A stretch of DNA of 64,000 nt from a virus. The translations under genes and the position numbers were made by a program. The stretch lies in the IMG/VR virus record IMGVR_UViG_3300027733_000001; one strand, given 5' to 3'. Positions within the stretch are counted from its first letter, which is position 1; each line of letters starts with the position of its first letter. Positions 7,349 through 64,000 of this stretch are shown here, piece by piece. A model generated the notes under the pieces. The model was not told the DNA's origin and did not search any database. It saw nothing but the letters and a program-made list of their open reading frames with translations.

Positions 7349-7351
7349 CTT

Positions 7352-7690
7352 ATGTTTACGATTGTCGCTGTAGCTTTCATCGTAGGTTATCTTATGCTCT
7401 TATGGCTCAAGACAGATGCCTTTGCAGAGTATATGAACCTTTTAAGGTTGAATGATTGGTTGCACCTGGATGAGTACAATCAACTTCATCGTGAAGGCTA
7501 CAGCGGCAACTATCCTGATTTTTTGTACGAATACTACAAGGATAAGTTTTTTGTAAGATTGGTTACCTGTCCCATGTGCTTAAGTTTCTGGACAGGCATT
7601 ATCTCAGCACTATACATAGACTCATTCAGTGGGTTGCTGTGCGCTCCTTTGATCTTGTTTTCTTACTTGTTATTTAATAAGATGCTTTAA
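7352..7690 (+). CDS. small membrane protein, DUF1360-like
   Basis: Hydrophobic N- and C-terminal segments with a LVTCPMCLSFW motif. Confidence 0.5.
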   Translation: MFTIVAVAFIVGYLMLLWLKTDAFAEYMNLLRLNDWLHLDEYNQLHREGYSGNYPDFLYEYYKDKFFVRLVTCPMCLSFWTGIISALYIDSFSGLLCAPLILFSYLLFNKML

Positions 7691-25776: not shown

Positions 25777-28700
25777 CTAGACTACTGCAGGTAAACATAA
25801 GAACCGAAGCTCTTGAAGATTTTCTATTTTACGTCCCTTATATACTGCAGAATACGTTACCTCTTTTTCCTGATTAATTGTTGCAGAGATGATGTTTGTG
25901 GCGAGTACATGCTGCGAGTTATAGTCCGCTTTCATCTGTATGTATTTGACAGGATCCTGGAGATAGTCCACAATTTCGTTCAATTTATGGTAATTTATTT
26001 TTTTACACCTAGCTGCAACATCCATAGGTAGTGGTTCAAGTTTAGCTAGATGTAGCTCAACAGTGTCCAGATCATCTAAAGACAGCTGAGTTAGTATTTT
26101 CTCATAGTTAGAAAGCCTACGTTTTTTGATGATGGACATGTTGCCAGTCATTCTTTTCCGTAAGTCTGTTTTATCTAGATGAAGAATTAATAAATTTGGT
26201 AGTGCCTTTACTCCGGGCACATCTTTACTATGGCAAAGATTTACTCCTGGACCACCAGCACTATTGAATACATTTGCTTTGGAACTGACTACAACTTTAC
26301 CGTGACGCACACACTCGCTTAGATTGTATGGATTTAATTTAAAATGCTTGAACTTCTCGATGCTCGGCTCAAACAGATCCTCTAATCTAGGTGAATTACT
26401 AAGCCACAAACCACTCAACGCAGAATTACCTTCGTGTTTCTGTAATACCTCCAAAAACGAGTTGAAGCTGAAGCTGTTTAGTGCTGGATCAAAATACGCT
26501 ATAAATTCGTCGGTATCTAAAAAGCACAAGAACTTAGCGGTAGCTCGCACCAAGTCATAAAAACTTTGATTGAGTTTGGTGTCGGGGAGTACAATGGGAT
26601 TACCTTCGAAATTAAATAGTGTATATGGCTTGTCTTTGTACTTTTCATACACAGCCAGCGTATATGGGCAGTCGCTACCATTATCTACAACCACTATATT
26701 ATGCCAGCCGACCAAAGCTGCGTGATACTGTAACCAAGCATCAAGTAACGCACCTTCATTTTTTGTTTTGAGTATTATCTTGAGCAATGAACGCTCGTCT
26801 TTTGCTGCAGGTGTACTGTTCACTGTTCTCAACGCCTGCTGAATCGCAGCATCTATATTGCTGTATTCAATATTTTTTATTTTTGATACTTCTGCCAGTA
26901 GTCCACTTAACCTGTTCGTATGTACTCGATCATTTAATTTTGCAGATACAAAAGAATTGAATATCTTCGGAAACGGAGAACTAAAACCTCTCAACTTTGT
27001 AGTGGGAGACCTTCCGTCAATAGTGGCTTGAATGACATCAGTGTATAAGAAAGGTTGATCTTTTGGAGTACTGAGGTTGAGTAGATACTCGGCAGGATTT
27101 TTGTAATACTCTGAAATTTCTCGGTTGTTATGCTTCCAGTTCTCTTTGATAGATTCGTTCTTATCAAAAAACTCTGCGATACTCCATTCAGGATTCTCGG
27201 ACATGACGTGATTTATCTTACTTTTAATTCTATCTTCAATCTGTGTTTTATGGAGGTGTAACATCAATAGTTCCGGACAATAAGTAAGGTCGCGGCTGAT
27301 GCTGTTGTGTGTACGCATACTGTTCTCCGTACTATTCAAGAAAATTGCTTTTCCTTTTACAATATCCCACCAAGGGTTGGTTACAGAAAAGTCAGTTACA
27401 TCCACTATATTCTCGTAGTCTTTCCCGTAGTAGTTATTGAATATCCAGCTTGTAGTCAGTGTGTGATTATTCTTATTCTGTTTTAAGAACGGCACTAATT
27501 TAGAGTTATCTATTACCTCTCTTTCATAGTCATAAAAACAAAGATACTCGTCGGTATCTAGAATTGCATGGAATAGACTGCATTTTTGTATGTCTTCGTA
27601 AAAGTTTAAAAACCTGCGAGAGTTACACAAATGCTCGTGGAAGCCGTCGAACGGATATACAAGTACATTGTATTTTTTATAGATATCCTGCACCTTTTGA
27701 CTAGTGCTGTTGTTGTCTATTACTATGATGTTATGGTTACCCACAAGAGCTATGTGGTACTGTAGCCAAGGCTCTAATAAAAACTCTTCGTCTTTTGTTT
27801 TGAGTACCAGTTTTAAAGCTGTGTGCTTATCTGGAGCATAAAAGCTACCTGTTCTTTTGCCTAGATAAGATAGCCAGTGCTTGTAAGCAGCTCTATCGTC
27901 GTTAAATTTTATGTTTAGGCTCTTGCTGTAAAAAACCGCATCAAACTCAGGGTCTACACAGTCTACATAACCATAACGGTCTACATATAGTTCCTTTAGA
28001 CCTTTAGCTGAAATATTGAATTTTATTAAATCTGGATAAGCTCTAGGACAGTACTCTGGGTCAAATATAAAATCCTGCAAATACGTGTTCGCACCGTCTA
28101 GATTCTTAGTGGATTGCGGTTGTCCGTACGTACCATAAACGTATGTACCGTAACGTGCAGGGTCATCAGGATTTTTACGATTTAATACTCCCTCCATGTA
28201 CGTATACGACGTTTCAACCGAACAGTCAGGGAACACCACAGTATTGTAATACTCTTTAGAGGTTAGATGGTTTTCATCAGACCAGGCCAGTGTTTTACAT
28301 ACCTTGATCCCATCAAATTCTAGTTCTCTAAACGCTGCAAGATATTCTTCTGGTTTGTAGCCTGTCTGTCCTCCATCCCAACCTTTTGGTAAGTTTGGAG
28401 ACCTGTTAAACCTCAGGTGTTTTACTTCTTTGTTGTTGATCATCATCGCCAACAAAGCATATATGTCTATGTTCACTATAAACGGCAAGTCGTGTTGAAT
28501 GAGTAAAACATAGTCTGTAGTTACATGAGAAAATCCTGTCTGTACGGACTTTGTCAAATGTCCCCATTCGTCGCGTTTAACTATCTGTACGTTTTTATAC
28601 TTACACTCACTGACACAATACTCATGCAGGTTCTTAAAGTATTCGGAAAATCTTTGCTCTGCTTTGGTTAATGTAGCTTTAATGTCCGGCTTAATTTCAT

Positions 28701-28845
28701 CATGAGCCAAAACAATCTTGGTATTAAGGTCCAGAGACAATAGATCGAGCGAGTCTATTACGGTCTTAATCAAGCTGATGCTTGGGTGCGAAGGTATCAG
28801 GTTCGCTGTAATTACTACAGTTAGTTTGTCTGCTAAATTGTTCAT
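25777..28845 (-). CDS. multidomain glycosyltransferase (N-terminal GT-A plus two Glyco_tranf_2_4-like domains)
   Basis: YVLLIQHDL, then twice L.LKTK.E..LL..WLQYH.ALVG..NI...DN.S...LDTDE. Confidence 0.8.
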   Translation of the reverse strand: MNNLADKLTVVITANLIPSHPSISLIKTVIDSLDLLSLDLNTKIVLAHDEIKPDIKATLTKAEQRFSEYFKNLHEYCVSECKYKNVQIVKRDEWGHLTKSVQTGFSHVTTDYVLLIQHDLPFIVNIDIYALLAMMINNKEVKHLRFNRSPNLPKGWDGGQTGYKPEEYLAAFRELEFDGIKVCKTLAWSDENHLTSKEYYNTVVFPDCSVETSYTYMEGVLNRKNPDDPARYGTYVYGTYGQPQSTKNLDGANTYLQDFIFDPEYCPRAYPDLIKFNISAKGLKELYVDRYGYVDCVDPEFDAVFYSKSLNIKFNDDRAAYKHWLSYLGKRTGSFYAPDKHTALKLVLKTKDEEFLLEPWLQYHIALVGNHNIIVIDNNSTSQKVQDIYKKYNVLVYPFDGFHEHLCNSRRFLNFYEDIQKCSLFHAILDTDEYLCFYDYEREVIDNSKLVPFLKQNKNNHTLTTSWIFNNYYGKDYENIVDVTDFSVTNPWWDIVKGKAIFLNSTENSMRTHNSISRDLTYCPELLMLHLHKTQIEDRIKSKINHVMSENPEWSIAEFFDKNESIKENWKHNNREISEYYKNPAEYLLNLSTPKDQPFLYTDVIQATIDGRSPTTKLRGFSSPFPKIFNSFVSAKLNDRVHTNRLSGLLAEVSKIKNIEYSNIDAAIQQALRTVNSTPAAKDERSLLKIILKTKNEGALLDAWLQYHAALVGWHNIVVVDNGSDCPYTLAVYEKYKDKPYTLFNFEGNPIVLPDTKLNQSFYDLVRATAKFLCFLDTDEFIAYFDPALNSFSFNSFLEVLQKHEGNSALSGLWLSNSPRLEDLFEPSIEKFKHFKLNPYNLSECVRHGKVVVSSKANVFNSAGGPGVNLCHSKDVPGVKALPNLLILHLDKTDLRKRMTGNMSIIKKRRLSNYEKILTQLSLDDLDTVELHLAKLEPLPMDVAARCKKINYHKLNEIVDYLQDPVKYIQMKADYNSQHVLATNIISATINQEKEVTYSAVYKGRKIENLQELRFLCLPAVV

Positions 28846-50582: not shown

Positions 50583-50990
50583 CTACTTAAAGGAACCAAG
50601 TTTGGATTTAGCAAGAGCTGTATAATAATCACTTCTTTCGACTAGATGATCTTTAGCTATTTCTTTAGCAGTATCGTTGTCGTCGGTATGCTCATGCTCA
50701 TGCTCTACACCCTTACCGAGTTCATTCTTGTCGAATAGATTGTCAGGCTTGTTGTCGCCTTTACCGCCTTTTAGTTTTTCTGCAGCCTGCTTGATTGCTA
50801 GTACTCTAGCTATAAACGCAGCCTTCTTATCAGGCAAACCATCATGCTTTGTAGCTGCAAAATCATGAAGTTGTTTCTCGCTCATACTATTGGCAAGCTC
50901 TTTAGCTTTACCAGACATATGCCCATTGCCTCTTTTGGCGGCTAGAGCCATGCCAAATAATCGTTGCTGTGCTTCAGATTTAGCAGGCAT
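50583..50990 (-). CDS. DUF3008-like plus DUF5661-like fusion protein
   Basis: MPAKSEAQQRLFGMALAAKRG...MSEKQLHDFAATK and KGVEHEHEHTDD...KEIAKDHLVERSDYY, linked by KKAA/KQAA. Confidence 0.65.
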   Translation of the reverse strand: MPAKSEAQQRLFGMALAAKRGNGHMSGKAKELANSMSEKQLHDFAATKHDGLPDKKAAFIARVLAIKQAAEKLKGGKGDNKPDNLFDKNELGKGVEHEHEHTDDNDTAKEIAKDHLVERSDYYTALAKSKLGSFK

Positions 50991-51002: not shown

Positions 51003-51506
51003 TTAAACCAATTTACCGGCATCGACCAACCGCTGCCTAAAAAGTTTTTTAACCATAGGATCGGCCAGATCTTTTGAAAGTCTTGTGCCCACTCCTAGTC
51101 CTGAGCCCAAACCTATACCGCCTCCTATGCCAGCACCTACAGCAGTACCTTTAAGCCCACCTGTAAGCATAGACATAAGTCTGCTCTTGTCTACAAGCTT
51201 TCCTGTCTCTGGATCAATTTCTTGTCCAGGGTTCATAAGACCATTAGCACCGCCAACAAGTCCTCCTAGTGCTCCTCCAGTAATTCCCCCTGTAGCTGCT
51301 CCCACCGCTCCCATTGCTCTAGTCGGTTTTTTTGCCATACCTGCCAGGAAATTTCTTATTGCCTTAGCCCCCGCAGGTAACGATGCGCTTGGAGGCAGAT
51401 TAACAGCTTCTTTTAAAATTCCCGCAGCCTCCTGTTCACTATAACCATATTCGCTAGCTTTCTTAACGAATCCATTGATGTATGCTTGTTCTTGTTGTGT
51501 TGTCAT
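51003..51506 (-). CDS. leader-family protein with Gly-zipper hairpin cargo
   Basis: Leader QAYINGFVKKASEYGYSEQEAAGILKEA. Confidence 0.7.
   Translation of the reverse strand: MTTQQEQAYINGFVKKASEYGYSEQEAAGILKEAVNLPPSASLPAGAKAIRNFLAGMAKKPTRAMGAVGAATGGITGGALGGLVGGANGLMNPGQEIDPETGKLVDKSRLMSMLTGGLKGTAVGAGIGGGIGLGSGLGVGTRLSKDLADPMVKKLFRQRLVDAGKLV
51435..51493. repeat. 59-bp exact duplicate of 60257-60315 (leader-coding)
   Basis: TTCACTATAACCATATTCGCTAGCTTTCTTAACGAATCCATTGATGTATGCTTGTTCTT at both sites. Confidence 0.92.
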
Positions 51507-51514
51507 ATAGGTAT

Positions 51515-51543
51515 ATTCTACGAAATTCTTTAATTCGATGCAA
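51515..51543 (-). promoter_or_regulatory. sigma70-like promoter
   Basis: TTGCAT-N17-TAGAAT. Confidence 0.65.
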
Positions 51544-51555
51544 AGAGTATTTAAA

Positions 51556-51999
51556 CTAAAGCTTTTTTGTTACTCTACGCTGACCATAGATATAGGCAAG
51601 CTTCTCTAGAACTCTAGGCGCGTCTTCGTTAATTTCTTTTTCCTCGAGACGAAGTACAACATAGCCTCCTTTGACTAGCTGTTTTGTTTTCTCACTATCT
51701 GTGTACTCTTTTTTAGTTCCGCTGTGCCAGTATGTGCCGTCAGCGAATATAGCTACATTAGGGTAGATAAAGATGTCTGCTATTGTCACTCCTAGCAATG
51801 GCTTCTGCGTTACAAACTCTATCCCCATAGCAGCTAGCATCTCCTGCAACTTAAGCTCTATACCAGTTTCTTTGCGATCACCACTCAAGTAGCCCTTGAT
51901 ACTCGCACACTTGGGGTTGCAGGTCTGCTTGTTGATTAACCGCTCAGTTTCCTTATTCCACAGCCTACCACATATACTGCACTCGTATCTAGGTTTCAC
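51556..51999 (-). CDS. DUF559/Vsr-like endonuclease with N-terminal Zn ribbon
   Basis: CSICG...CNPKC; TGIELKL...ADIFI...AIFADGTYWH...GYVVLRL. Confidence 0.8.
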   Translation of the reverse strand: MKPRYECSICGRLWNKETERLINKQTCNPKCASIKGYLSGDRKETGIELKLQEMLAAMGIEFVTQKPLLGVTIADIFIYPNVAIFADGTYWHSGTKKEYTDSEKTKQLVKGGYVVLRLEEKEINEDAPRVLEKLAYIYGQRRVTKKL

Positions 52000-52415
52000 T
52001 ACTGATAGTATCTGTCGTGTACAACCATTTTACGCTTGGGAGCGTTCTTTTTTCTAGGCTGCCTTTTGGGCGGAGTCTTTTTCATTTTTTCGTGATGCTC
52101 TTGCATTTCTTTGAACATCTCCCACTGCCACCAACTCAGCCAAAAAAATGTAATACTCATGCCGCAGTTCAATACAATCTCTGATGTAGCAGGAGTGCTC
52201 AGAGTAAGCACATTAGTAACTGCACCACATACAAGAACAGTCAAACCTGTTTTTGCAAGCCATGCTTTGATCTGGTTGTCCCATACTGAATTCTTTGGAT
52301 CACCAAATATATGTATCAATAGCCCTAGAGCCGAAAAGGCTGTGGTGCAGTTCGCAACTGCGTTGACGATTGCTGATGCAGTCATTTTATTATTTTCTAG
52401 TACGAGTCTTTCCAA
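51999..52415 (-). CDS. three-helix membrane protein with basic tail
   Basis: Three hydrophobic segments followed by a KKTPPKRQPRKK tail. Confidence 0.55.
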   Translation of the reverse strand: MERLVLENNKMTASAIVNAVANCTTAFSALGLLIHIFGDPKNSVWDNQIKAWLAKTGLTVLVCGAVTNVLTLSTPATSEIVLNCGMSITFFWLSWWQWEMFKEMQEHHEKMKKTPPKRQPRKKNAPKRKMVVHDRYYQ

Positions 52416-52954
52416 TCATCACCGAGGTCACTGTCTAGACGTGGACGACTAAACAGGTTGTTCTTGGTTACGTATTTTTGCAGATCTGAAGTATTGTGCT
52501 TTGTTTCTGCCTGTATCAGGTTCGAAAGTCTGTTCAGTGGTGCTTTGGGATCTTTGGCCACCAGCTCTTCAAATCTAGGAATGATTTTATCTTTCATGTA
52601 ATTGTTGAGAAGCTTGCGCTTATGTACCGCTCCTGAAATTCCGCCTGCAGCAAGACCTAACCCACCACCAATCAAAGCTCCCTTTAGGCTGTTAGCAACA
52701 GACTTATCCTCGCGCTCTTCTCCAGCATTTCCGCCAAGTAATCCCAGATATGCCCCACCTACCCCACCGACCGCCAATCTCTGCTTCATATCTGTCTGAA
52801 GCTTTTTATCTTTGAGCAGCTTCATCAAGTTTTTCTTTAATCCTTCAGGCATATCAACTGCGCTTTTAAGCAGCTCATTTGCCTCTGTGCAAGATAGACC
52901 ATATTCACTGGCCTTTTTAACAAACCCTTCAATATACGCTTGTTCTACATTCAT
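52397..52954 (-). CDS. leader-family protein with Gly-zipper hairpin cargo
   Basis: Leader QAYIEGFVKKASEYGLSCTEANELLKSA. Confidence 0.7.
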   Translation of the reverse strand: MNVEQAYIEGFVKKASEYGLSCTEANELLKSAVDMPEGLKKNLMKLLKDKKLQTDMKQRLAVGGVGGAYLGLLGGNAGEEREDKSVANSLKGALIGGGLGLAAGGISGAVHKRKLLNNYMKDKIIPRFEELVAKDPKAPLNRLSNLIQAETKHNTSDLQKYVTKNNLFSRPRLDSDLGDDWKDSY

Positions 52955-53322
52955 ACTGTTTTCTTTCTTTTAGGTCTTCTAGGTCTTCTGTTTTTAACTG
53001 TCGCAGTATTTGTTTCTGGATGGTCAGCTACTATGCTTGCTGGAAGTATTTTATTACTGAAATATTCTATACCTTTTAACCCTAGAAATCCAAGTAAAAA
53101 CGCTATGCCGTAGTGGTAGTGTGTATTGTCGAGCTTTGTCATGTTCACCACAATAGGGGTGATATAATTAGCGCTGGCTGCTCCACCTATAAGACTGCTT
53201 ACAGTCCTAGTCAGGTTCATCGCAGTGTTTTTTGAGGTGAGAAGTATAGCGCCGAACAACCCACTGATGAGCAGGCCTACGTCGATACCATATTCTTTTA
53301 AATCTATATTAGGTCTTTCCAT
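52951..53322 (-). CDS. holin-like membrane protein
   Basis: Three short TM helices (GLLISGLFGAILL, SLIGGAASANYITP, GIAFLLGFLG) and a highly basic C-tail. Confidence 0.55.
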   Translation of the reverse strand: MERPNIDLKEYGIDVGLLISGLFGAILLTSKNTAMNLTRTVSSLIGGAASANYITPIVVNMTKLDNTHYHYGIAFLLGFLGLKGIEYFSNKILPASIVADHPETNTATVKNRRPRRPKRKKTV

Positions 53323-53330
53323 ACTATATG

Positions 53331-54761
53331 CTAGGAATTGTGGCTTTTAATAATGTTGAGAAACTGGTTATTTAGCTTTTCTTTATCGTCAGCCAGCTGT
53401 TGTAGATACTCGTCAGTGCTTGTGCTCTTTTCTCTCATTATCTTCTGCAATAGAGAAGGCTTCACTGCCGATAGATATCGCTGCACCAATACCTTTCTCT
53501 TTTCAGGACTCAAGGCTTCGTGAGATTTATATCTAGCTGCTCTACCTATTACCTGTTTTAGTTTCTCGTTGTTGAAATGGGGCTCGAGCAGCTGCACAAG
53601 CCTTGTACCTTTAAGATCTAGCCCCTCTCCTCCTGCACTACTCACAATCAATGCACGAATCTTGTTATCGTTATAGTCTTTCACCAGCTGGTTTCTGAGG
53701 CTGTCTTTAATAGCTCCAGAGAACTCGCCATATGGAATCTTGTGTTCGTCCAATAGCTTTTTATATGGATTTACGCCGCTGTCGAGATAGTTGGAATATA
53801 TCAAGGCCTTGTACTCCTTGTCTTTCTCCATCTTGTTTTTGAGATACTCGAAAGCTTTTTCAATCTTGGGAGATACTGCTTTTGATGGATCTTTTTCGAA
53901 ACCGTGTGTTCCGTTACTGATCATTCTTGCGCCTGTAAGAAAGTGCACAAGCTTGTCTAGCTCTCTTTTTTCTGGAGCAAGACCCATCTCGACCTTTTTA
54001 CGAAGAACCCACGGAAGCTCTTTCATCATCGTTCCATAGATGGCTTTCTGCTTGTCGTGCATAGGAACATGCACAGTCTCTGTACTCATGCTAGGAAAGC
54101 CTTCGCTATTGCCTGCATGATAGTCTACATACTTGCCAAAAATACCCTTGAGCTCATCTTTGTTCTTAAGGCTTATATGCTCACCAGGACGAAGCCCCAT
54201 GATTCTGTTCATCAAGGTGTTTGGAACCTGTGTTCTTTTGATATAGCGCTCTTCGAAGTTTCTTCTGCTCTCTGGCATCAGTTTCTGTCCAGAGGCCATG
54301 TTTACAAGCTTGGCAATATCTCCAGGATGATTGTATATAGGAGTACCAGACAGTAACACGCGCTTTTCAGGATGAGCTTCAGACAGTGCTTTGTATAGCT
54401 TCGAGCCTTCGTTACGCATTCTGTGCGCTTCGTCTACCACAAGAAGCTTGCCCGCTAGATCGTCTCCCTCTAAGCCTTTTCTAGCTATTTCTTGCTGAGA
54501 ATGAATCTTCAGATTCTTTGGATCTTTGCCTATCCATTTTTTTAGCTCTTTGCGATAGTTCTCTTTTAGTGCTGCAGGGGCTACCACCTCTGCAGGCAAC
54601 CCTAGTGCCTTGTATGCCTCGATGCTGCTTCTAGTCTTACCGCTCCCAAGACCATGCATAAGAATCAGCCCCTCCTGATCCTCTTTCTTAAGCTTGTCCA
54701 CGATCCTCTGCTGATGAGGCATCAACCCTTCAGTGGGAGCAGTAACCTTTTTCTCTTTCAT
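53331..54761 (-). CDS. SF2 (SNF2-related, NPH-I/D6-like) helicase/ATPase
   Basis: HGLGSGKT, VVDEAH, LSGTP and SSAGGEGLDLKG...LEPHFN...QVIGRAARYKSH motifs. Confidence 0.88.
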   Translation of the reverse strand: MKEKKVTAPTEGLMPHQQRIVDKLKKEDQEGLILMHGLGSGKTRSSIEAYKALGLPAEVVAPAALKENYRKELKKWIGKDPKNLKIHSQQEIARKGLEGDDLAGKLLVVDEAHRMRNEGSKLYKALSEAHPEKRVLLSGTPIYNHPGDIAKLVNMASGQKLMPESRRNFEERYIKRTQVPNTLMNRIMGLRPGEHISLKNKDELKGIFGKYVDYHAGNSEGFPSMSTETVHVPMHDKQKAIYGTMMKELPWVLRKKVEMGLAPEKRELDKLVHFLTGARMISNGTHGFEKDPSKAVSPKIEKAFEYLKNKMEKDKEYKALIYSNYLDSGVNPYKKLLDEHKIPYGEFSGAIKDSLRNQLVKDYNDNKIRALIVSSAGGEGLDLKGTRLVQLLEPHFNNEKLKQVIGRAARYKSHEALSPEKRKVLVQRYLSAVKPSLLQKIMREKSTSTDEYLQQLADDKEKLNNQFLNIIKSHNS

Positions 54762-54763
54762 GG

Positions 54764-57700
54764 CTAGCCCTGTATAGGTTGTCCTATACTATTTTTCTTT
54801 TGCTTAGATTCGTTCATAACAGCATCTAACATATTACCAGAACCTGTGATTCTATGCGATATATACTTGTAGGCTCCAGGAATTCCTTCTGTAGCTATAT
54901 GAGAAAGCCCACTGACTACAGCCTCTGGAACTTTTTCAATAGGGGCGTTTCTCAGTGCCATTGTGAGGCTAGGATGCTCGTCCTCATGCATTGTCCAGTG
55001 ATCTCCGTGAGAATGAAGATGAAATAGATTGTTTGGATTTCTATATGAGGCAAACTCGTCTTGCCCTGCCTCAGGAATAGCTATAGCCACAGGCTCGAAA
55101 CCCAATTGCTCTAGATGCTCTTTAGGTAGTCTATGTTTTGGAATAGCTATACGTTTATGATATGTGCCAGCCATAACACCGTGCTCGCGCATTTTTTTAG
55201 CCCAATACTTGAAACGGCGTTTAAGTTTAGCTTCGTCTATAAGGTTTTGTTCTTCAGAAGATTTTGACATGTATCGTTTCATTGCCTCATCCGCGATTTC
55301 CTGCATGGGCTTGTATAATTTATCTATCTGTCCCGGATGAGTGACGGATGGATTTTCTACACTGTATGCAGGTGACCTTTTGGATGCGCTATTCCAGCCC
55401 ATATGTTTTCTGTAAATTCCAAACCCCGGTTTAGCGAAATTTTGTTTATAGTTATCAATCATATGCTCTGGCACAGCGCTTGCACGCATATGATTAATAG
55501 CGTTGTTATTTGCTATTCTTTCTAAAGCCAAGCTTTCAGAAGGAAATAAGTGAGGATTTTGAGTTATTTTTGTATGTAAAGGATGAGGGTCATCAAGATA
55601 ATGCATCGCGTGACCTGCACCCTCATGCATGATAGCATCAGACATTCTGTATTTCTTTTTTAAAATTTGTGTACCTCTTGACTGATTAACTAGTGATTCT
55701 GGAAGCCTTTTAGGAACATACACTACTTTATCTAAAGGATTGAAGCTTGGGGGCATATTCTCAATCTGTGAAGTTAAGTCAGAAATGTTATTAAATACTC
55801 CAGGGTGTTCTTTGCTTAATCTGTTAAAGATTTTTTTTGAATATTCTACAGGATCTTTCGTAACAGTGATTCCTCTTGCTCTAAGAGTGCGTATAATACT
55901 TTTTAAAGCACTTATAGTTGTCGCTTCTTTCTCTAACTCACTTTGCTTACCAAGATATTTGTCAGAATTTAATGCGTAAGAAGGATCGAGATTATGCTTT
56001 AATACTTCGAACTCATGTGAAGCTGCAAACGGAAGCATGCCCTGAGCATTCGCAGCAGGTAGATCAACCGATGAAGCTATCTGTTTAACAGCTGCAGATC
56101 TAGGCGCTCTAGGTCTTCCTACTCTAGACGCACTCATTCTACTTAGACTCGCGCTACTATCTTTACATCCTTTAGCTGCCTGCAGTATAAGCTCTCTTAT
56201 TCTTTCAGGTGTGGCTCCGGCTTCTTTCTTTAGTTTAGGCTTCTTTTTCTCTGTTTTAGGTCTGCAGCTGTCGTTGCTATATGGTTCTTTGCCAGGAACA
56301 GGCTCATAGCCTTCCCAGCATCTGCCTGAAGCTGTTTTATCGCCTAATAGTCTGTTATAGATATCGTTCAGTTTGTTTGAAATCTTATCATCTATAGGAC
56401 GAGGAGGATTGTGATTACGTCCACTGATGAACGTTTTGATATCTTCTGCAGTTTGATTTTTTAATGAGGAATTAATAAACTTTTCTCGAGCTATGTGTCC
56501 TTTTAGGAAACCTAGACCTCCACCTATTCCTGCCCCTACCAATGCTCTGTTCCTAGCAACTTCAAATCTATTATTAACATCGGTTTCTCCAGAGCTAGCA
56601 TCGGTTTTATCGCCTGGAAAAATCAACCCGGACAACCCGCCGACTGTAGCTCCAGCAATTGCGCCAATACCGCCTCTCAAACTACGAGCATGTCGGTTGT
56701 TAGCTCGAACTAGGCTTTTATACAGCAATTGCTCAGGTGTCATAGCAGTCTTTTCACTAGACTCCTTCTCAATAATAGGAGACTGTATAGCAGACTGCTC
56801 TTGCTTCCTTTTATGTAGATGATAAGCAAGTGCAGCTAGCCCTGTCACCCCTGCACCTATCCCTATTGCTTTACGATAAGGTTTGAGGTTTTGGAGAAGC
56901 GAAGTTTTTGGTGCGTTTACAGATTTATGCAGTTTTTTAGCTTCCTCAGTAAAACTGTAATAAGGTCTAATTGGATTAGGGTGTGGAGGAGCATCGACAT
57001 TAGCACCCATCTCTCTAAACCGGTTTTTAATGCCTGCTGTAATACTTTGTTTTACACTTTCGTCAACAGCATCATGAATATTTAAATGTTTTAATCTTCT
57101 AGCCACCCCTGAATCTGGTCCAAGCCGAACAGCTTCTTCAGCCAGTTCTTTTTTAAGTTTTTCAAGTATTTCATCAACATTTCTCCCGCTAGGGTTTAGT
57201 GCTCCTCTCAAAATAGCTTCATGTTTGTCTCGACCAAAAGCATTCACAATTTCTTCTGCAAGATTTTCAGGTAAATTAGGTTTAGGTTTAGTTGGGTCGT
57301 AAAAATATTTAATAGTGTGTTTTGTTCTTCCTGAACCAGGGACGGTTTCAAATATAGTACCATCATGAGTGCTGCTTTGAAAAAATGGAATATTTTCTCC
57401 TTTTGGTCCTTTAGCTGTATAATGTGCTCCTGGAGCATAGGAATCTGCTTGCGCTGATAAAGTGGAACTAAATTGTTTTGGTATATAATACTCATCATAA
57501 TCGATCGTCCGTAGAGGCCCTCTAAAATTCCAAGAAATGCGATCAAGATCGACAGCTTCCCCATTACTCAATCTAAACATATTAGGCGCCAGTGGCTCTT
57601 CAGCCTTCTTCTCAACAGGGTAACACAGATCCCCTTTGATCTCATAACCCTTTGGCACACTGTAACCCATATCCTTTAGAAACGAACCACTGAAAGCTTC

Positions 57701-58753
57701 ACCCTTGTCTACAGCTTTACTCACAGCCTTGGGTACCCCTGCATACTTCTCTATGTACGAGTACAGATCCAAAACCTCACTAGTTTTCTCTAAATTACTA
57801 TAATTTGTAACACTAAACCCCAGCTTACCCAATAACAGAGTATCATCATTATTAACATAGCTGTTGCCGTCCTTGTCCACTATCCCTGTGTATCTAGCTT
57901 CTTTCAAGCTTCCACGAACCTCACGATTACGCAGATTCATCCTATTATTCTTTTCAGCCTGAATGTTGACATTCCTCATGTTGTCTCTAGCCCACTGTAT
58001 AGCGTCTGGTACAACAGGAACTACAGTAGCTGCACCCTCTAGAACTGCACCAGGAATATCTTTGTTGAATGCTCTGTCGGCTATTCCAGCTATATGCGAA
58101 CCAAAATTAACTACGGGCAATTCTTTTTTAGCTATAGCTTTCAATCCTTCCAGATAGTTGCCATGAGCCATATCATACATAGCTCCGGCAGTATTGGCCA
58201 CCCTACCCATAGACTTTAGAGCAAACTGAGTGTTTGGTAGTGAAGGAGTCAATACATTGCTTGATGCTGGAGTCTGTTGATTAAGCTGTAATGGTTGATT
58301 TCCTCTAGTCTGAGAGTTTTGGGTAAAGTCTACTACACCTGCAGCCCCAGGCTGAGTAGGCGCCGCAGCTCTATTGGCTCCGGCACCTATCTCTCCTGTG
58401 GAATATGGAGTAACCCTATTGTCGTTACCTCCACCAGATATTGTTCCTCCCTGTCTAGTTCTAGCGTTGTTAGCTATGGGTGTACTAGCTGCATTGCTAG
58501 ACGCCTGCTGTTTTGGCTGAACTGGACTAGCTGGAACTATCTGTTTGTTTGCTGTAACTGGACCGTTGGTGAGAGGCTTGTTGTCTGGTGCCTCTACCGA
58601 ACCCAGCTGTTGCTGACTATTAGCTAGTGGCTTTTGCTGATTCTGTACAGCTGTTCCAGAAACCTTTAGTAGGATATCAGATAATTTTTCTTTTTTCTGA
58701 TGTGCTGAAGCCTTCTCTAGAAGTTTTTGGAGGTATTGTACAGGGTTATGCAT
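54764..58753 (-). CDS. 1329-aa mosaic polyprotein-like protein punctuated by K-x-A motifs
   Basis: Unrelated-looking segments separated by LKVS, EKKA, EKTA, DKTA, KKEA and EKEA. Includes a Gly zipper, a CWEGYEPVPGKEPYSNDSC module and an HEGAGH motif. Confidence 0.65.
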   Translation of the reverse strand: MHNPVQYLQKLLEKASAHQKKEKLSDILLKVSGTAVQNQQKPLANSQQQLGSVEAPDNKPLTNGPVTANKQIVPASPVQPKQQASSNAASTPIANNARTRQGGTISGGGNDNRVTPYSTGEIGAGANRAAAPTQPGAAGVVDFTQNSQTRGNQPLQLNQQTPASSNVLTPSLPNTQFALKSMGRVANTAGAMYDMAHGNYLEGLKAIAKKELPVVNFGSHIAGIADRAFNKDIPGAVLEGAATVVPVVPDAIQWARDNMRNVNIQAEKNNRMNLRNREVRGSLKEARYTGIVDKDGNSYVNNDDTLLLGKLGFSVTNYSNLEKTSEVLDLYSYIEKYAGVPKAVSKAVDKGEAFSGSFLKDMGYSVPKGYEIKGDLCYPVEKKAEEPLAPNMFRLSNGEAVDLDRISWNFRGPLRTIDYDEYYIPKQFSSTLSAQADSYAPGAHYTAKGPKGENIPFFQSSTHDGTIFETVPGSGRTKHTIKYFYDPTKPKPNLPENLAEEIVNAFGRDKHEAILRGALNPSGRNVDEILEKLKKELAEEAVRLGPDSGVARRLKHLNIHDAVDESVKQSITAGIKNRFREMGANVDAPPHPNPIRPYYSFTEEAKKLHKSVNAPKTSLLQNLKPYRKAIGIGAGVTGLAALAYHLHKRKQEQSAIQSPIIEKESSEKTAMTPEQLLYKSLVRANNRHARSLRGGIGAIAGATVGGLSGLIFPGDKTDASSGETDVNNRFEVARNRALVGAGIGGGLGFLKGHIAREKFINSSLKNQTAEDIKTFISGRNHNPPRPIDDKISNKLNDIYNRLLGDKTASGRCWEGYEPVPGKEPYSNDSCRPKTEKKKPKLKKEAGATPERIRELILQAAKGCKDSSASLSRMSASRVGRPRAPRSAAVKQIASSVDLPAANAQGMLPFAASHEFEVLKHNLDPSYALNSDKYLGKQSELEKEATTISALKSIIRTLRARGITVTKDPVEYSKKIFNRLSKEHPGVFNNISDLTSQIENMPPSFNPLDKVVYVPKRLPESLVNQSRGTQILKKKYRMSDAIMHEGAGHAMHYLDDPHPLHTKITQNPHLFPSESLALERIANNNAINHMRASAVPEHMIDNYKQNFAKPGFGIYRKHMGWNSASKRSPAYSVENPSVTHPGQIDKLYKPMQEIADEAMKRYMSKSSEEQNLIDEAKLKRRFKYWAKKMREHGVMAGTYHKRIAIPKHRLPKEHLEQLGFEPVAIAIPEAGQDEFASYRNPNNLFHLHSHGDHWTMHEDEHPSLTMALRNAPIEKVPEAVVSGLSHIATEGIPGAYKYISHRITGSGNMLDAVMNESKQKKNSIGQPIQG

Positions 58754-58792
58754 AAGTATAGTTAATAGTGTGCCAATTCAGCACACATTCAG

Positions 58793-59191
58793 TTATTCGC
58801 CATTCTTTACTTTGTCGATAGCTGCCTGCAACTTTTCGTTGTATCTATGTGCTCCATATCCGCCACCTGCATGAGCCGCTAGTTGACTAGCTGTTCTGCC
58901 GAGGGTAGGATTTTTAGTTAGCATACCCAGCACACTTCCACTCAGCATTCCGCCTGCAGCAGGAAGTGAGATATTCGCGAGTCTAGATGGTGCTTCACTA
59001 GGACTCATCATATCTCTTGCCCCATGATACAGTGGTAATCCTCCTCCAAATATAGCGTTCAAGGGCACATTAGCTTTTTGACCTTCCAGCTCTTTTAAGA
59101 GCATTGCTTTAGCCATGCTGCTATCTACTCCCTGTTCCGATGCTCTTTTAAAGAAACCTTCAACGAAAGCATTTTCTTGTTCTTCTGTCAT
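58793..59191 (-). CDS. leader-family protein, Gly/Ala helical cargo
   Basis: Leader NAFVEGFFKRASEQGVDSSMAKAMLLKE. Confidence 0.65.
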   Translation of the reverse strand: MTEEQENAFVEGFFKRASEQGVDSSMAKAMLLKELEGQKANVPLNAIFGGGLPLYHGARDMMSPSEAPSRLANISLPAAGGMLSGSVLGMLTKNPTLGRTASQLAAHAGGGYGAHRYNEKLQAAIDKVKNGE

Positions 59192-59237
59192 ATGTTGTTT
59201 TTTGTTTGTTTTTGTTTACTGCGAGATTTAGCCGGCA

Positions 59238-60023
59238 CTAGTGTCTTCTCATTGCCTGCTGATATAAAGGATTATTATACACTTCCTGCGCTTTCATGCC
59301 AGGATGATACATCTGTCGAATAGCTTCGGCTTTCGCTCTATCTAGTCTAGAATTGGCGTTATAGCTTCCCATGATTCTTCTTAGTTCGCTAGCACTAGGT
59401 CCAGGAGCTGCCTGCTGATATCCTACTGCTCCTCCCATAGATCTTGGAGCATTCAGGAATTGAGCGTCGTCCATCTGGGCTGGAACTGCACTAGCTAGTG
59501 GTCTTGCTTGTACTGGCTGCACTGGTCTTGTTTGCTGAACAGGTTGAGCTGGCTGAACAGGTTGAGCTGGCTGAACAGGTTGAGCTGCTTGTCTTGGCCA
59601 GCTTATACCAGAATATGGAGCTGCTCCTCCAGTATTTGTTTGCTGCACTGGTTGTACTGGGCTTGCCTGTTGGACAGGTTGAGCTGCTGGTTGCATAGGG
59701 CTAGGCTGTACAGGACGCTGAGCTGCCTGCTGCTGAGGAGCTACAGGGCTAGCCTGATTTACATGATCTGCTAGGTTTTGATAGTATTCTATCGGTCTTT
59801 TGGGTGCCTGCATCTCTGAAGGCTTTTCAAAAATCAGTTGCTCTGATGCAGGTAATACTGCACTAGACATAGGTCTAGGTTTAAACGAGCTTGTAGGAGC
59901 GGTAGGCATCTGCATATTAGTTACTGCAGATTTGTACAGCTCAAGAGCTCTACTATATTCCACTCCACACTGATCTGCTCGTTTAACAAACCCTTCAAAG
60001 AATGCTTGGTCTTGGTCTGTCAT
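59238..60023 (-). CDS. leader-family protein, Pro/Gln/Ala disordered cargo
   Basis: Leader QAFFEGFVKRADQCGVEYSRALELYKSA; QPAQPV repeats. Confidence 0.7.
   Translation of the reverse strand: MTDQDQAFFEGFVKRADQCGVEYSRALELYKSAVTNMQMPTAPTSSFKPRPMSSAVLPASEQLIFEKPSEMQAPKRPIEYYQNLADHVNQASPVAPQQQAAQRPVQPSPMQPAAQPVQQASPVQPVQQTNTGGAAPYSGISWPRQAAQPVQPAQPVQPAQPVQQTRPVQPVQARPLASAVPAQMDDAQFLNAPRSMGGAVGYQQAAPGPSASELRRIMGSYNANSRLDRAKAEAIRQMYHPGMKAQEVYNNPLYQQAMRRH
59534..59587. repeat. 3 x 18-bp tandem repeat
   Basis: GCTGAACAGGTTGAGCTG x3, encoding QPAQPV on the minus strand. Confidence 0.9.
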
Positions 60024-60034
60024 ATTATGCTAGA

Positions 60035-60322
60035 TTATTTAACTACCAAGTTTGGATTTGTTTGAGGAGGACCTTTGGACACAGGCTGCTTTGGCGCCAG
60101 TGTAGGCTGACCTGTTTTCCATTCATTCCACATTTCTCCAAAAGTTTTAACTCCGTTATATGGAGCTAGCTGAGTTTTACTAGGTAGTGAAATTGCTGCT
60201 GGCTGAACTACACCTGTAGTAGGTCCTGCCTGCTTGAGGATATATAGGGCTTCATCTTCACTATAACCATATTCGCTAGCTTTCTTAACGAATCCATTGA
60301 TGTATGCTTGTTCTTTTGTCAT
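60035..60322 (-). CDS. leader-family protein, short Pro-rich cargo
   Basis: Leader QAYINGFVKKASEYGYSEDEALYILKQA. Confidence 0.7.
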   Translation of the reverse strand: MTKEQAYINGFVKKASEYGYSEDEALYILKQAGPTTGVVQPAAISLPSKTQLAPYNGVKTFGEMWNEWKTGQPTLAPKQPVSKGPPQTNPNLVVK

Positions 60323-60327
60323 ATGTT

Positions 60328-60858
60328 TTATCCCTGAGGTATTGTGTTCTGTTGTTCGAATCTGTTGTTTGCTGCTGCTTGCTGATTGATATGTCTACCT
60401 ACGTCTCTAGCTTTATTCAGATAGCTGAGCCCGGTAGATGGAATGATGCCGGCAGGTCCTCCCATCAAAGCAGCATTGCTGAGTGTATCTATGCCTGCCC
60501 CTATAAAATCTCCTTCGGCTGCTCTTGCTACAGGGCCTGCAACATGTCCTAGAACAGGAACTGCACTAGCGATTGCTCCTCTACTCATAGGTACTGCTGT
60601 ATTGGTAGGAGTATACGGGCTTGTTTTTTGCACAGGCACACCCTTCTGAGGAAAGTCCATGATTGCTGCGCTTCCTGGTGTAGGGTTAGGATTAGCATTC
60701 CTGGTAGCGATTCCTGCATTGATCTGATTGTTGGTTCTGAAACCAGGGCGAACTGGTGCTTGAGCCTGTTTGAATATATTCAGCGCTTCTTCTTCACTAT
60801 ATCCGTACTCATTTGCTCTTTTTACAAAGCCAATTAGAAAACTTCTATCTGTACTCAT
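60328..60858 (-). CDS. leader-family protein, amphipathic Gly/Ala cargo
   Basis: Leader RSFLIGFVKRANEYGYSEEEALNIFKQA. Confidence 0.7.
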   Translation of the reverse strand: MSTDRSFLIGFVKRANEYGYSEEEALNIFKQAQAPVRPGFRTNNQINAGIATRNANPNPTPGSAAIMDFPQKGVPVQKTSPYTPTNTAVPMSRGAIASAVPVLGHVAGPVARAAEGDFIGAGIDTLSNAALMGGPAGIIPSTGLSYLNKARDVGRHINQQAAANNRFEQQNTIPQG

Positions 60859-60859
60859 A

Positions 60860-61204
60860 TTATTTCTGGTTGTTTGTTTTCAGCTTTTCTTTCCAAACAC
60901 CAGCGTCTACTACGACGTTTGGATTTATATTTTTATAGCATCCGTTGTGTCCTATAAGCAAGTGGCAAATAATTCCATAGCTCTTAGATTCACACATAGT
61001 AATAAGATTGCTAGGCTCTAGTTCTAGTTCTGGATGCTCATGAAAAGGTTTGATGTGATGCACCTCGAGCTTGTTCTTGTCTCCGCACACAGCACACTCA
61101 CTGTTCTTTTCCAGATGGTGTTTCCTTACGGTAGGCCAGTGGCTTGATCTTTTTGCTCCGCTAGGAGCCTTGCCCTGCAGTATGTCTTTTACGCGCTTGA
61201 TCAT
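60860..61204 (-). CDS. HNH endonuclease
   Basis: CAVCG...LEVHHIKP...NLITMC...CHLLIGH. Confidence 0.9.
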   Translation of the reverse strand: MIKRVKDILQGKAPSGAKRSSHWPTVRKHHLEKNSECAVCGDKNKLEVHHIKPFHEHPELELEPSNLITMCESKSYGIICHLLIGHNGCYKNINPNVVVDAGVWKEKLKTNNQK

Positions 61205-61208
61205 AGTC

Positions 61209-63257
61209 CTAGCTTTTTAGACGCTCTATAAGCTGATTATTGAAAGCTTCATCCTCGGCAATTTCACTGAGTGTTCTAGAATCTTTTGCAGTGGTAGCCT
61301 CTCGTTTCAGCTGCTTCACCAGATCTTTTGCAGGTTTTCTAGACTCTTTTATTTCTTTTCTTATAGCTTCAGATTTAGCTCTCCAGTGTGTAGGTTGATC
61401 TAGCTGCGTTCTTGTCTGCATGTCTTTTAGATGAAAACGTAACGCATCCCCTGGAGATATAAATTTATTATCGCTCAATTGCTCGTATTTTCGCCCAAAA
61501 TCGCTATCCATTTTATTCAAGTCAGCTTCGCGTTTTTCCAGCCGTCTATATTCAGGACTTGCACGATGTTTACGTATATCTTCAATTTTTCCTCTACCAT
61601 CTGCAATTGCATGATTTATCGTGCGATTATCTGGGTTGTCTGGGAACATTTTTTTGACTTTAGCTCTATAAAAATTATCTGCTTTTCCTGCATCTCTCAT
61701 GTTGGCACACATTAATCGGAGGCGTAGTGCCTCTACCTTTGCATCGTCCATGAAATCAGGCAAAATCCTCTCAACTTCCTTTTTGTGATACTTTTCGAAT
61801 ATTTTTGGCTCTTTGGTCGCATGTAGTGCTTTGCCTCCTGTTCTACCTAAAATACCTCCAGCTGTACCAAAAAGTAATGCGCCTTTGAGACCAGCTTTTA
61901 ATTTTGACTCTGCTGGTTCGCCAGTTTCAGGATCTTTTGCAACATTTGATACCCCACGTATTCCTCCGTATATTCCTCCAATTCCTGCTCCGGCCAGAGT
62001 ACCACCATTTATGTAGTTTTTTTCTACGTCAGCTAATGTTTTACTTAGTCCCTTAGACCTGTAGGCCTGCGTATGCGCTTTACTTAGATATTTCTGCTTT
62101 ATATCTTCAGGCACCCTTATGTTGAAAGCCTGCTTGTCTAGGCTTCCAGCCTTTAACTGAGGTATATTGTCTGAATAGACTCCTGTAATCGGGTCCATGT
62201 TTACAGGCTTTGCAGTCCTTTTCATATGCTCAATTTCTTCTTTTGAGAACTTTGGAGCTGGCGCCTTGTAGCCGTTAACAATGACATCGTTCACACTGTC
62301 TGGTTTAAGCTTAGAAGCATTTCTCGCCAGATCGTTTGCAAGTTGATGTCCTCTTCTTCCTCTAGACGGCCCCATACTCTTTAGATGTACATCCTCAATT
62401 CCACTACTGCGAATTCCGTGTTTTTGGCGATAAGCTTTTCTAAGCTCAAGCACTTCGTCTATTATTTTTTTATCGTGGTTTGAAACACGCATTCCGCTTA
62501 TACCGCCGGCTCTATGGTTCTCTAAGCGTTCCCTAAATTTTCCTTTCGCTGTACTAGCGCCTATAGCTCCCCATGTAGCTGCACCTATACCTCCTGATAT
62601 CAAACCGTTCTTTATTGCGTTTTTCATACTACTATCACCGTCAGGAGATGATCCTTGAAGTGTACTCAATCCGCTAAGTCCTCCATGTACCAACCCTCCG
62701 GCTGTACCGCTAATCAGTGCAGCCTTTAGCCTCTCCTTCAAATAAGCATCTTGTAGAATTTTGCTTGGAGATATGTGAGTGGCCCTTTTATTCAATCTAG
62801 CTAGCATGTTCTCTTTGACTTTGTCGGCTAGATTAATATTTTTTGTGTCTTTGTCTGCTTGTCGATAGATGTATTTGCCTGCTCTGGAAATATTCTCAGG
62901 AGCATTCTCGGCTATTCTACTCAAAGAATTGCCATAGTCTTGCATAGGTCCTCTGACACTCCAACGGCGACCTAATTCGCCAGCACCTGCACCTAATGCT
63001 GCCCCTGCACCCAAACCAACACCTGCATGTCCACCCATAGCTTTGAGATACTCTGTTATTTTAGCTTTAGTATCAAGCTCATCTAGCTCTCCATTACGAT
63101 GCCTGTTTATTGTTTTAGCTAGACCCACAGTTCCGCCCACGCCAGCACCAGTCAATCCTCCAGCTACAGCACCTACAGTTTTATAACCTTTGTGTTTATC
63201 TAGCATCAGCCGCTCTATTGCAGCTGTGTAAAGTTTTCTTTTTTGTTCGGGTGTCAT
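61209..63257 (-). CDS. 682-aa protein with three Gly-zipper hairpin modules separated by K-x-A
   Basis: Modules start at the N-terminus, after LNKRA and after LDKQA. Confidence 0.7.
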   Translation of the reverse strand: MTPEQKRKLYTAAIERLMLDKHKGYKTVGAVAGGLTGAGVGGTVGLAKTINRHRNGELDELDTKAKITEYLKAMGGHAGVGLGAGAALGAGAGELGRRWSVRGPMQDYGNSLSRIAENAPENISRAGKYIYRQADKDTKNINLADKVKENMLARLNKRATHISPSKILQDAYLKERLKAALISGTAGGLVHGGLSGLSTLQGSSPDGDSSMKNAIKNGLISGGIGAATWGAIGASTAKGKFRERLENHRAGGISGMRVSNHDKKIIDEVLELRKAYRQKHGIRSSGIEDVHLKSMGPSRGRRGHQLANDLARNASKLKPDSVNDVIVNGYKAPAPKFSKEEIEHMKRTAKPVNMDPITGVYSDNIPQLKAGSLDKQAFNIRVPEDIKQKYLSKAHTQAYRSKGLSKTLADVEKNYINGGTLAGAGIGGIYGGIRGVSNVAKDPETGEPAESKLKAGLKGALLFGTAGGILGRTGGKALHATKEPKIFEKYHKKEVERILPDFMDDAKVEALRLRLMCANMRDAGKADNFYRAKVKKMFPDNPDNRTINHAIADGRGKIEDIRKHRASPEYRRLEKREADLNKMDSDFGRKYEQLSDNKFISPGDALRFHLKDMQTRTQLDQPTHWRAKSEAIRKEIKESRKPAKDLVKQLKREATTAKDSRTLSEIAEDEAFNNQLIERLKS

Positions 63258-63266
63258 ATCTTTAAT

Positions 63267-63298
63267 ATTATATAAGATCGCTCTAATCTCTGATAGCT
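63267..63298 (-). promoter_or_regulatory. putative promoter AGCTATCAG-N17-TATAAT
   Basis: Same motif and spacing as at 20393-20424. Confidence 0.5.
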
Positions 63299-63350
63299 AA
63301 AAAAAAGAATTCTCCCGCCCTCTACTAGAGAGGGGCGGGAGATCCTTTTT
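63299..63350. terminator. bidirectional intrinsic terminator
   Basis: A8...TCTCCCGCCC-N12-GGGCGGGAGA...T5. Confidence 0.8.
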
Positions 63351-63415: not shown

Positions 63416-64000
63416 CTACCTACGCTGGTGGCGCTTACCGTTATGGCGCTGCCTGTAGGGCTGCTGCTGATTAGGCATTGTTTTCATGGCCTGTTCCAGC
63501 TTAGCTGCAATCTCCTGGTTTATCACAGGAGCAGGTTCGATGCTCACCTTACTCACTGCTTCCTCTGCCATGAGCTCTCTCCCTACATCGTCAACCATTT
63601 TGAGGATGGCGTCAGCTGTAGCCTTCTGAACTTCTTCAGGAGACAGTTTTTCTTCCTCTAGCTGTACTTGCAGCTCTTCCACCTTTGCTTCTGTTTCCGT
63701 GACGATTTCCACCACTGCAGCAGATGCTTCGGGTGACAACTCTTCTCTATCCGCAATCACATCTACAGTGATTTCGTCAAGCTTTGCTTGAGCTATGGAT
63801 ACCTCCGTGGGAGGTATCACTTCTATGACGATCACCTCTGCCACAGGCTCAGGAGTTACCTCAGCTGCAGGAGCAGGAGCTGCCACAGGCTCAGGAGTTA
63901 CCTCAGCTGCAGGAGCAGGAGCTGCCACAGGCTCAGGAGTTACCTCAGCTGCAGGAGCAGGAGCTGCCACAGGCTCAGGAGTTACCTCAGCTGCAGGAGC
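63416..64000 (-). CDS. acidic protein with Pro/Ala/Glu repeats (N-terminus beyond window edge)
   Basis: The frame is open to the window edge; PEPVAAPAPAAEVT repeats, then an acidic helical region and a basic C-tail. Confidence 0.65.
   Translation of the reverse strand, partial: APAAEVTPEPVAAPAPAAEVTPEPVAAPAPAAEVTPEPVAAPAPAAEVTPEPVAEVIVIEVIPPTEVSIAQAKLDEITVDVIADREELSPEASAAVVEIVTETEAKVEELQVQLEEEKLSPEEVQKATADAILKMVDDVGRELMAEEAVSKVSIEPAPVINQEIAAKLEQAMKTMPNQQQPYRQRHNGKRHQRR
63840..64000. repeat. 42-bp tandem repeat, at least 3.8 copies
   Basis: GCCACAGGCTCAGGAGTTACCTCAGCTGCAGGAGCAGGAGCT units running off the edge. Confidence 0.9.

Follow-up and report, generated by a model that had tools for sequence, protein, structure and literature searches.

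Why six proteins of otherwise unrelated sequence begin with one and the same short peptide is the question raised by a stretch of viral DNA of 64,000 nucleotides (IMG/VR record IMGVR_UViG_3300027733_000001), which as a whole is referred to here as the window. Six minus-strand open reading frames (ORFs) located between positions 51003 and 60858 have one N-terminal module of about 32 amino acids (aa) in common, which is called the leader in the following, while the remainder of each protein is called its cargo. A sequence-only reading of this DNA had compared the leader to the capsid targeting sequence of phage T4. According to the analysis described here, a somewhat better than even chance is given to the explanation that the leader would be a docking domain of the prohead core by which cargo is loaded and which the head protease later cleaves away. 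As the module also recurs in a protein encoded next to the head protease, it is probably a natural capsid-loading tag.

All six ORFs exist as the sequence-only reading had described them, and each of them opens at the first start codon after a stop. In a MAFFT alignment, their first 32-34 residues align without internal gaps and feature six invariant positions (G, F, K, A, G, A), beyond which the sequences are unrelated. When the window was translated in all six frames, a hidden Markov model (HMM) of the module picked out exactly these ORFs, with scores of 62-70 bits and E-values of 1e-18 to 1e-21 and the next-best match at E ~1, and a second HMM, built from metagenomic homologues only, recovered the same six ORFs. 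In relatives, the leader consensus reads MTTEQAYIEGFVKRASEYGFSENEALELLKQA. Gly-zipper cargos, as proposed earlier, follow the leader in ORF 51003-51506 (167 aa; leader 51405-51506, 34 aa; 69.8 bits; isoelectric point (pI) 10.5) and, together with a helical part, in ORF 52397-52954 (185 aa; leader 52859-52954, 32 aa; 66.8 bits; pI 9.5), the latter with weak matches to Gly-zipper_YMGG and TraT under the cut-off. Likewise, the Pro/Gln-rich character was found again for ORF 59238-60023 (261 aa; leader 59925-60023; 67 bits) and ORF 60035-60322 (95 aa; leader 60227-60322, 32 aa; 70.5 bits). The cargo of the former has a C-terminal motif in common with the metagenomic protein P0001 and a homologue at 62448-63308 in G001, a complete relative of 204,454 bp which is collinear with the window and was used for genome-wide tests. 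The set is completed by ORF 60328-60858 (176 aa; leader 60763-60858; 64.1 bits) and ORF 58793-59191 (132 aa; leader 59090-59191; 62.6 bits, 33 bits with the independent HMM), whose leader is the most diverged copy and, as noted before, degenerate at its end (LLKE). A further stretch, DFIDGFKKEA in ORF 1-783, had been named as related, which did not hold: the matches of the two HMMs were not significant (E 1.3 and 5.6) and the ORF was rejected as a seventh member. It is the C-terminal part of a large protein with weak leader-like stretches (13-783, plus strand), whose homologue in G001 (826 aa) features weak repeated module matches with a whole-protein E of 0.0034.

Running the leader HMM beyond the window had been suggested along with the original reading, and a profile search of 1.84 billion representatives revealed 521 metagenomic protein clusters with the module at E <= 1e-3, 127 of them at E <= 1e-10. 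The following cluster-level figures on copies rest on the best 150 of these 521. In 139 of the 150, the module starts at residues 1-5, so the claim of an N-terminal leader largely stands; nevertheless, internal, C-terminal and tandem copies occur as well, with two or three copies in nine of the 150 and a few located behind a DUF3008 domain or at the C-terminus. Cluster look-ups of ten members yielded unannotated metagenomic proteins in every case. Between three and nine leader genes are present at each of eleven IMG/VR loci, part of which belong to contigs of 190-204 kb, and three near-complete genomes contain 7-11 module copies each. No family of Pfam-A, PHROGs v4 or the NCBIfam 20 profiles spans the leader in any of the six proteins. 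Among GenBank phages, neither megablast with the cluster nor tblastn with a leader protein and a consensus-like leader (E up to 10) gave a match. Moreover, the module was not found in 185,579 cellular species genomes, and a full-text literature search for the hexapeptide of the leader core retrieved no paper.

The 139 N-terminal copies are highly uniform, with G, K, A, and G conserved in 100% and F in 99% of the sequences. The module terminates in L/I-L-K-x-A/S, with the Lys present in 96% and the final Ala or Ser in 97%, and the information content falls from 2.5 to 0.3 bits at the following residue. The leader carries a hydrophobic-x-K-x-A/S motif twice, once within the first helix, where it reads F-V-K-K/R-A-S, and once at the module end. 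The AlphaFold2 model of ORF 60035-60322, based on a 136-row alignment, features a helix at residues 3-17, a loop and a second helix at residues 22-32 with a predicted local distance difference test score (pLDDT) of 93-98, whereas its cargo is mostly coil (pLDDT 61-67). The leader is accordingly a confidently predicted, folded helix-loop-helix domain and no simple linear signal. A Foldseek comparison of the leader model to the PDB gave no match at E <= 0.001, with a 32-residue hairpin being too small to decide. A DNA-binding, SAP/HeH-like reading of the hairpin was set aside because the module is net acidic, the six window leaders carrying a charge of -1 to -3. Since synonymous sites look saturated in most leader pairs (one example pair being 71% identical in protein and 57% in DNA), selection acts on the peptide. 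On the same grounds, recent duplication or gene conversion was rejected as the origin of the similarity for every pair except the leaders of 51003 and 60035, which are the sole pair resembling a recent copy.

The connection to head assembly becomes apparent in the relatives. In G001, nine module copies are situated in the syntenic cluster, and additional ones are found at 134.7-135.8 kb, 137.3 kb and 144.8 kb. The gene at 133187-134629 encodes a 480-aa protein matching the head maturation protease family phrog_18299 (E 2.4e-9), without a match in Pfam. Right after it follows an acidic protein of 376 aa, in which two diverged modules and a loop resembling dockerin/EF-hand are found, and then p299 (299 aa, acidic), a 130-aa protein, a 139-aa leader protein, a 165-aa protein and a 319-aa capsid protein with HK97-fold (Atlas score 0.98). 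PDB sequence searches with the protease, p299 and the capsid candidate gave no match. Because its Atlas model was of low confidence and coiled-coil-like, p299 was rejected as capsid protein. The order of protease, multi-module protein and p299 is kept in three further lineages (L011, L023, L025), with protease identities down to 38% in L025, where a single 165-aa gene separates the protease from the multi-module protein. In L024, the multi-module protein is likewise followed by p299, and the partial ORF upstream is unmatched to the protease. G002 and G003 harbor the same extra module copies as G001. In more distant lineages, one N-terminal and two C-terminal modules flank the acidic core of the multi-module protein, and AlphaFold2 modeled such a three-module protein as three separate hairpins on disordered linkers. 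New in these findings are both the two or three module copies in an acidic protein downstream of the head protease, in G001 and three further lineages, and the leader gene located between the protease and the major capsid gene.

The same gene order bears on the suggestion that the module docks proteins on the tail or the collagen-like fibre apparatus instead of the head. The collagen-like fibre genes always have the main leader cluster as their direct upstream neighbor, encoded on the same strand, and one diverged copy in G001 (144776-145015) is located downstream of the head block between unassigned genes of 941 and 140 aa, both of which would suit such a function. With the multi-module protein and a leader gene inside the protease-to-capsid interval, and a terminal motif that follows the head genes and not the remaining genome (see below), this suggestion is regarded as highly improbable. 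Besides, three head-block genes of L025, a distant lineage (1375-2163, 4935-5900, 7224-7721), open with a strongly diverged leader-like sequence or only with the end of the second helix and a Gly-zipper. Therefore, the family may be wider than the HMM detects.

Counts of the hydrophobic-x-K-x-A/S motif extend this link to proteins without the module. The head block of G001 contains 44 motifs compared to 12.7 expected (3.5-fold), while the enrichment is 2.0-fold in the leader cluster and 1.1-fold in the remaining genome. Similarly, the window shows 2.85-fold enrichment in the ORFs at 1-4.7 kb, 1.87-fold in the cluster and 0.87-fold elsewhere. No enrichment (0.8-1.1-fold) was obtained for control motifs in which Arg or Glu replaced the Lys, nor for the motifs of phiKZ-type and T4-type, the latter being the [LI]-x-E site of a gp21-type protease with 1.06-fold in the head block. 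With Gly or Thr at the last position of the motif, the value was 1.6-fold, and with Leu or Val 2.0-fold. The motif occurs within the first 25 residues in nine of 15 head-block ORFs vs. 22 of 190 elsewhere (p 4e-5). The capsid protein itself features it near the start in two lineages, with differing flanking residues. In the multi-module family, an invariant Lys that belongs to a K-x-A/S context stands right before each internal module.

Based on these results and the analogy to other phages, the following mechanism is proposed. The 32-residue module would serve docking in the prohead core as a small helix-loop-helix domain, with the acidic protein downstream of the protease displaying two or three copies of it on disordered linkers. 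Small basic proteins carrying one N-terminal copy would be drawn into the assembling prohead by the same contacts, and their docking partner could be scaffold-like proteins, the capsid shell at its inner face or further module copies. Subsequently, the head protease may cut behind the terminal hydrophobic-x-K-x-A/S of the module, the copy in helix 1 being a probable second site. The freed cargo would stay in the head and exit with the DNA. Binding, cutting, packaging and ejection are steps that we infer from gene content, motif distribution and predicted structure.

Several points weigh against such a cleavable domain. Predicted helix 2 includes the terminal K-x-A, and therefore the conservation of the latter could be structural without marking a site of cleavage. 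There are also copies located at C-termini or ending without K-x-A, as exemplified by P0081, P0100 and, in P0151, the middle module. In the single-chain model of the three-module protein, no packing between the modules is seen (predicted template modeling score 0.25), and the main leader cluster is situated ~70 kb away from the head block, directly upstream of fibre genes. In addition, the limits of the head block used for the motif statistics were set after looking at the data. A search of G001-G003 with PF03420 (Peptidase_S77, the T4 protease) gave no match, with the controls being silent, too, and the GenBank phage searches found no cultured relative. The helical setting of the K-x-A in a confident model, the modules without it and the existence of tandem, internal and C-terminal copies would all be expected if the module did target the virion interior but as a permanent domain, which oligomerizes or anchors internal proteins in an inner-body-like manner and is retained, with the Lys and Ala at its end serving helix packing or partner contacts. 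Nevertheless, a permanent domain leaves the enrichment of the motif at the N-termini of many head proteins without the module, the capsid protein included, unaccounted for, as well as the Lys-x-Ala/Ser context immediately before internal modules and the abrupt end of conservation at the Ala. Hence, permanent retention is judged unlikely, and preference is given to a docking domain which the head protease takes off.

The cargos are in line with this preference. With a median length of 118 aa, they are rich in Ala, Gly and Pro and net basic, the six window cargos having pI values of 9.5-10.5. Their diversity is high, as the 139 proteins fall into 64 BLAST clusters. About 20% contain G-x3-G-x3-G and about 15% are Pro/Gln-rich. 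Leaders on clearly non-virion enzymes would have counted against the sequence-only reading. Any Pfam match was obtained for only five of the 150 homologues, always in the cargo, and no established enzyme family was among them. Still, the cluster has features which might be expected of proteins acting outside the virion, i.e., intracellular or envelope-directed proteins for host takeover, lysis or exclusion, whose common interaction domain might bind the two small hydrophobic proteins of the cluster or a host factor. The Gly-zipper cargos resemble membrane-active segments, and two small hydrophobic putative membrane proteins with basic tails (51999-52415 and 52951-53322, both minus strand; membrane character read from sequence) are encoded within the cluster. 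Furthermore, the cluster is hyperplastic and contains homing-type nucleases, namely the passenger genes for a DUF559/Vsr-like endonuclease (51556-51999, minus strand; Pfam), which is interspersed among the leader genes in all relatives according to synteny, and for an HNH endonuclease (60860-61204, minus strand; Pfam HNH 5e-7, synteny). Against such a role stand the module copies between protease and capsid genes in several lineages, the position of the cluster adjoining the structural fibre genes and co-oriented with them, the finding that none of the 139 cargos contains a Kyte-Doolittle transmembrane-like segment, and the complete lack of the motif in both small hydrophobic proteins. An action outside the virion is thus considered quite improbable. 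The two hydrophobic proteins, which have no family match, are the best-conserved of the cluster genes, with identities in relatives of 55-63% for the first and 75-84% for the second, and their tails are rich in Lys, Arg and Pro.

A special case among the neighboring genes is a mosaic, polyprotein-like protein of 1329 aa (54764-58753, minus strand), as judged from block homologies and motif positions. At its N-terminus, hydrophobic-x-K-x-S is found at residues 12 and 28 in the same register as in the leaders, suggesting possibly a degenerate leader. Several of its blocks exist as separate genes in relatives, three of which bear leaders, and one of these counterparts is a 65-aa gene consisting of a leader and a Cys-Trp module. 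Motifs at residues 380, 661, 841, 934/940 and 1162 are located at, or within about 10 residues of, five of the approximately ten block ends, and the domain of block 938-1149 is preceded by a hydrophobic-x-K-x-A site in all three architectures aligned. The protein might therefore represent the same idea in the form of a polyprotein, with hydrophobic-x-K-x-A/S sites at its joints. The Cys-Trp module, comprising about 35 residues (C-W-E-G-Y ... S-C), was observed at residues 806-844 of the 1329-aa protein, at 60455-60652 of G001 and in P0003, P0004 and P0084; it forms part of the 65-aa leader gene that stands alone, is embedded as a block in giant proteins and also immediately precedes internal leaders. 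Another cargo block, common to the 1329-aa protein (residues ~1030-1090) and two leader proteins (L001:6346-7539 and P0136), features a conserved HExxH and a conserved, gluzincin-like Glu about 30 residues further on, with the window copy having a one-residue insertion within the motif. Its reading as a putative packaged metallopeptidase is only a lead because a Pfam match is missing. A Gly-zipper protein belonging to the same cluster (682 aa; 61209-63257, minus strand) matches the leader protein P0142 with its residues 157-333. Its start (M-T-P-E-Q, later followed by the Gly-zipper) recurs at residues ~671-710 of the 1329-aa protein, after a K-T-A junction and with the Met kept, which looks like a gene fusion. 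Taken further, the docking and cleavage proposed above would imply that this phage group copied the helix-loop-helix unit of its multivalent core protein onto dozens of cargos, which together with the three-module core protein form a network in the prohead that is dissolved by a head protease of hitherto undescribed Lys-x-Ala specificity to release basic, Gly-zipper and peptidase-like proteins for ejection. We regard this extended version as tentative, short of an even chance.

Other genes of the window are of interest in their own right. Next to the first leader gene, a protein with DUF3008 and DUF5661 is encoded (50583-50990, minus strand; Pfam 1.2e-15 and 8.7e-8; 57.9 bits with a cut-off of 24 and 32.8 bits with a cut-off of 27), in whose homologues (in L004 and L005 and in P0036, P0108 and P0147) the leader module follows straight after the DUF3008 part. 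The DUF5661 part contains a dockerin/EF-hand-like loop (D-V-D-K-D-G-K-I-E-x-S-D-L), which is also present in P0151 (L019:1687-2817), P0081 and P0001, so that the multi-module core protein as well as several leader proteins possess it. Matches to the Pfam families Dockerin_1 and EF-hand stayed under the cut-off, and the loop may be a calcium-binding unit. An SNF2-family helicase (53331-54761, minus strand; no motif observed, 2.3 expected) is located inside the cargo cluster in this phage only, as no homologue was seen at that position in L001, L003-L006 or the 40-150 kb listing of G001. The ORF at 63416-64000 (minus strand), which runs off the window end and has no family match, contains Ala/Pro/Glu-rich repeats, each about 14 residues long and arranged in tandem, after which come an acidic helical portion and a basic tail. 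Beyond the cluster, the window encodes collagen-like fibre genes at 32-50 kb, glycosyltransferases, ribonucleotide reductase and PhoH. Two regions of glycosyltransferase family 2 are present in a protein of 1022 aa (25777-28845, minus strand), along with a stretch weakly resembling ubiquitin C-terminal hydrolase (E 2.6e-4, under the cut-off).

Provided that the proposed loading and release are true, phages would have a second natural way of bringing proteins into their heads, using a small folded domain borrowed from a protein of core or scaffold type instead of the short linear peptide of T4, and the protease code would differ as well, being Lys-x-Ala. For widespread, uncultured phages of ~190-205 kb with more than 500 protein clusters, the head-delivered proteome would thereby be defined, and mosaic giant proteins would be explained as protease-jointed polyproteins. 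Moreover, a compact packaging tag of 32 residues and the matching release protease would become available for foreign proteins.

The closest functional comparison is offered by phage T4, where, in the passage of PMC5694885 concerned (citing Mullaney and Black 1996), internal proteins are described as joining the core via an N-terminal capsid targeting sequence that is removed by gp21, with IPI-III and Alt as its carriers. Both systems place a common N-terminal peptide on unrelated, basic, non-essential-looking proteins, which are encoded by variable genes dispersed beyond the core head operon, and in both the terminal motif marks other head proteins as well. In contrast, the leader spans 32 residues with a predicted helix-loop-helix and ends in hydrophobic-x-K-x-A/S, whereas the T4 sequence is a linear peptide of 10-20 residues ending in L/I-x-E without sequence similarity; additionally, the module is repeated in the core protein beside the protease. 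In sequence, length and cut motif, the leader falls outside the T4 system. From the original analogy, the idea of capsid targeting is retained on circumstantial grounds (the N-terminal position, the head-enriched terminal motif, the copies among head genes and the basic, varied cargo), while that of a simple linear signal is given up.

In the giant phages SPN3US, phiKZ and 201phi2-1, propeptides of ejection or inner-head proteins are thought to target the prohead and to be cut by the prohead protease; they comprise 80-160 residues, may hold several cut sites and are cut at A/S/G-x-E (PMC5694885; PMC10052503). Similar to the system described here, these are large phages with many head-internal proteins, but their propeptides are mostly not common between proteins, apart from the paralogs gp53 and gp54, and A/S/G-x-E is not enriched here. 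Herpesvirus assemblin sites consist of Ala-Ser with a hydrophobic residue upstream. With an Ala before the cut and often a Ser after it, they resemble the first leader motif F-V-K-K/R-A-S, although the leader motif is characterized by its Lys two positions ahead of the Ala, and the cut site of the leader is only predicted.

Cargo fused to residues 238-303 or 141-303 of the P22 scaffold is encapsidated (PMC9962691; 10.1101/2022.12.13.520362). A small two-helix domain of scaffold type is thus sufficient to carry fused cargo into the procapsid, and a two-helix hairpin reminiscent of the P22 helix-turn-helix is predicted in several lineages on the acidic protein downstream of the protease. The domain of the P22 scaffold is C-terminal and basic, and the scaffold exits intact without proteolysis, while the module described here is acidic and N-terminal on its cargo, the phage encodes a protease and Foldseek revealed no homology match. 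Despite these differences, nature appears to have fused such a two-helix domain to many different cargos in this phage group.

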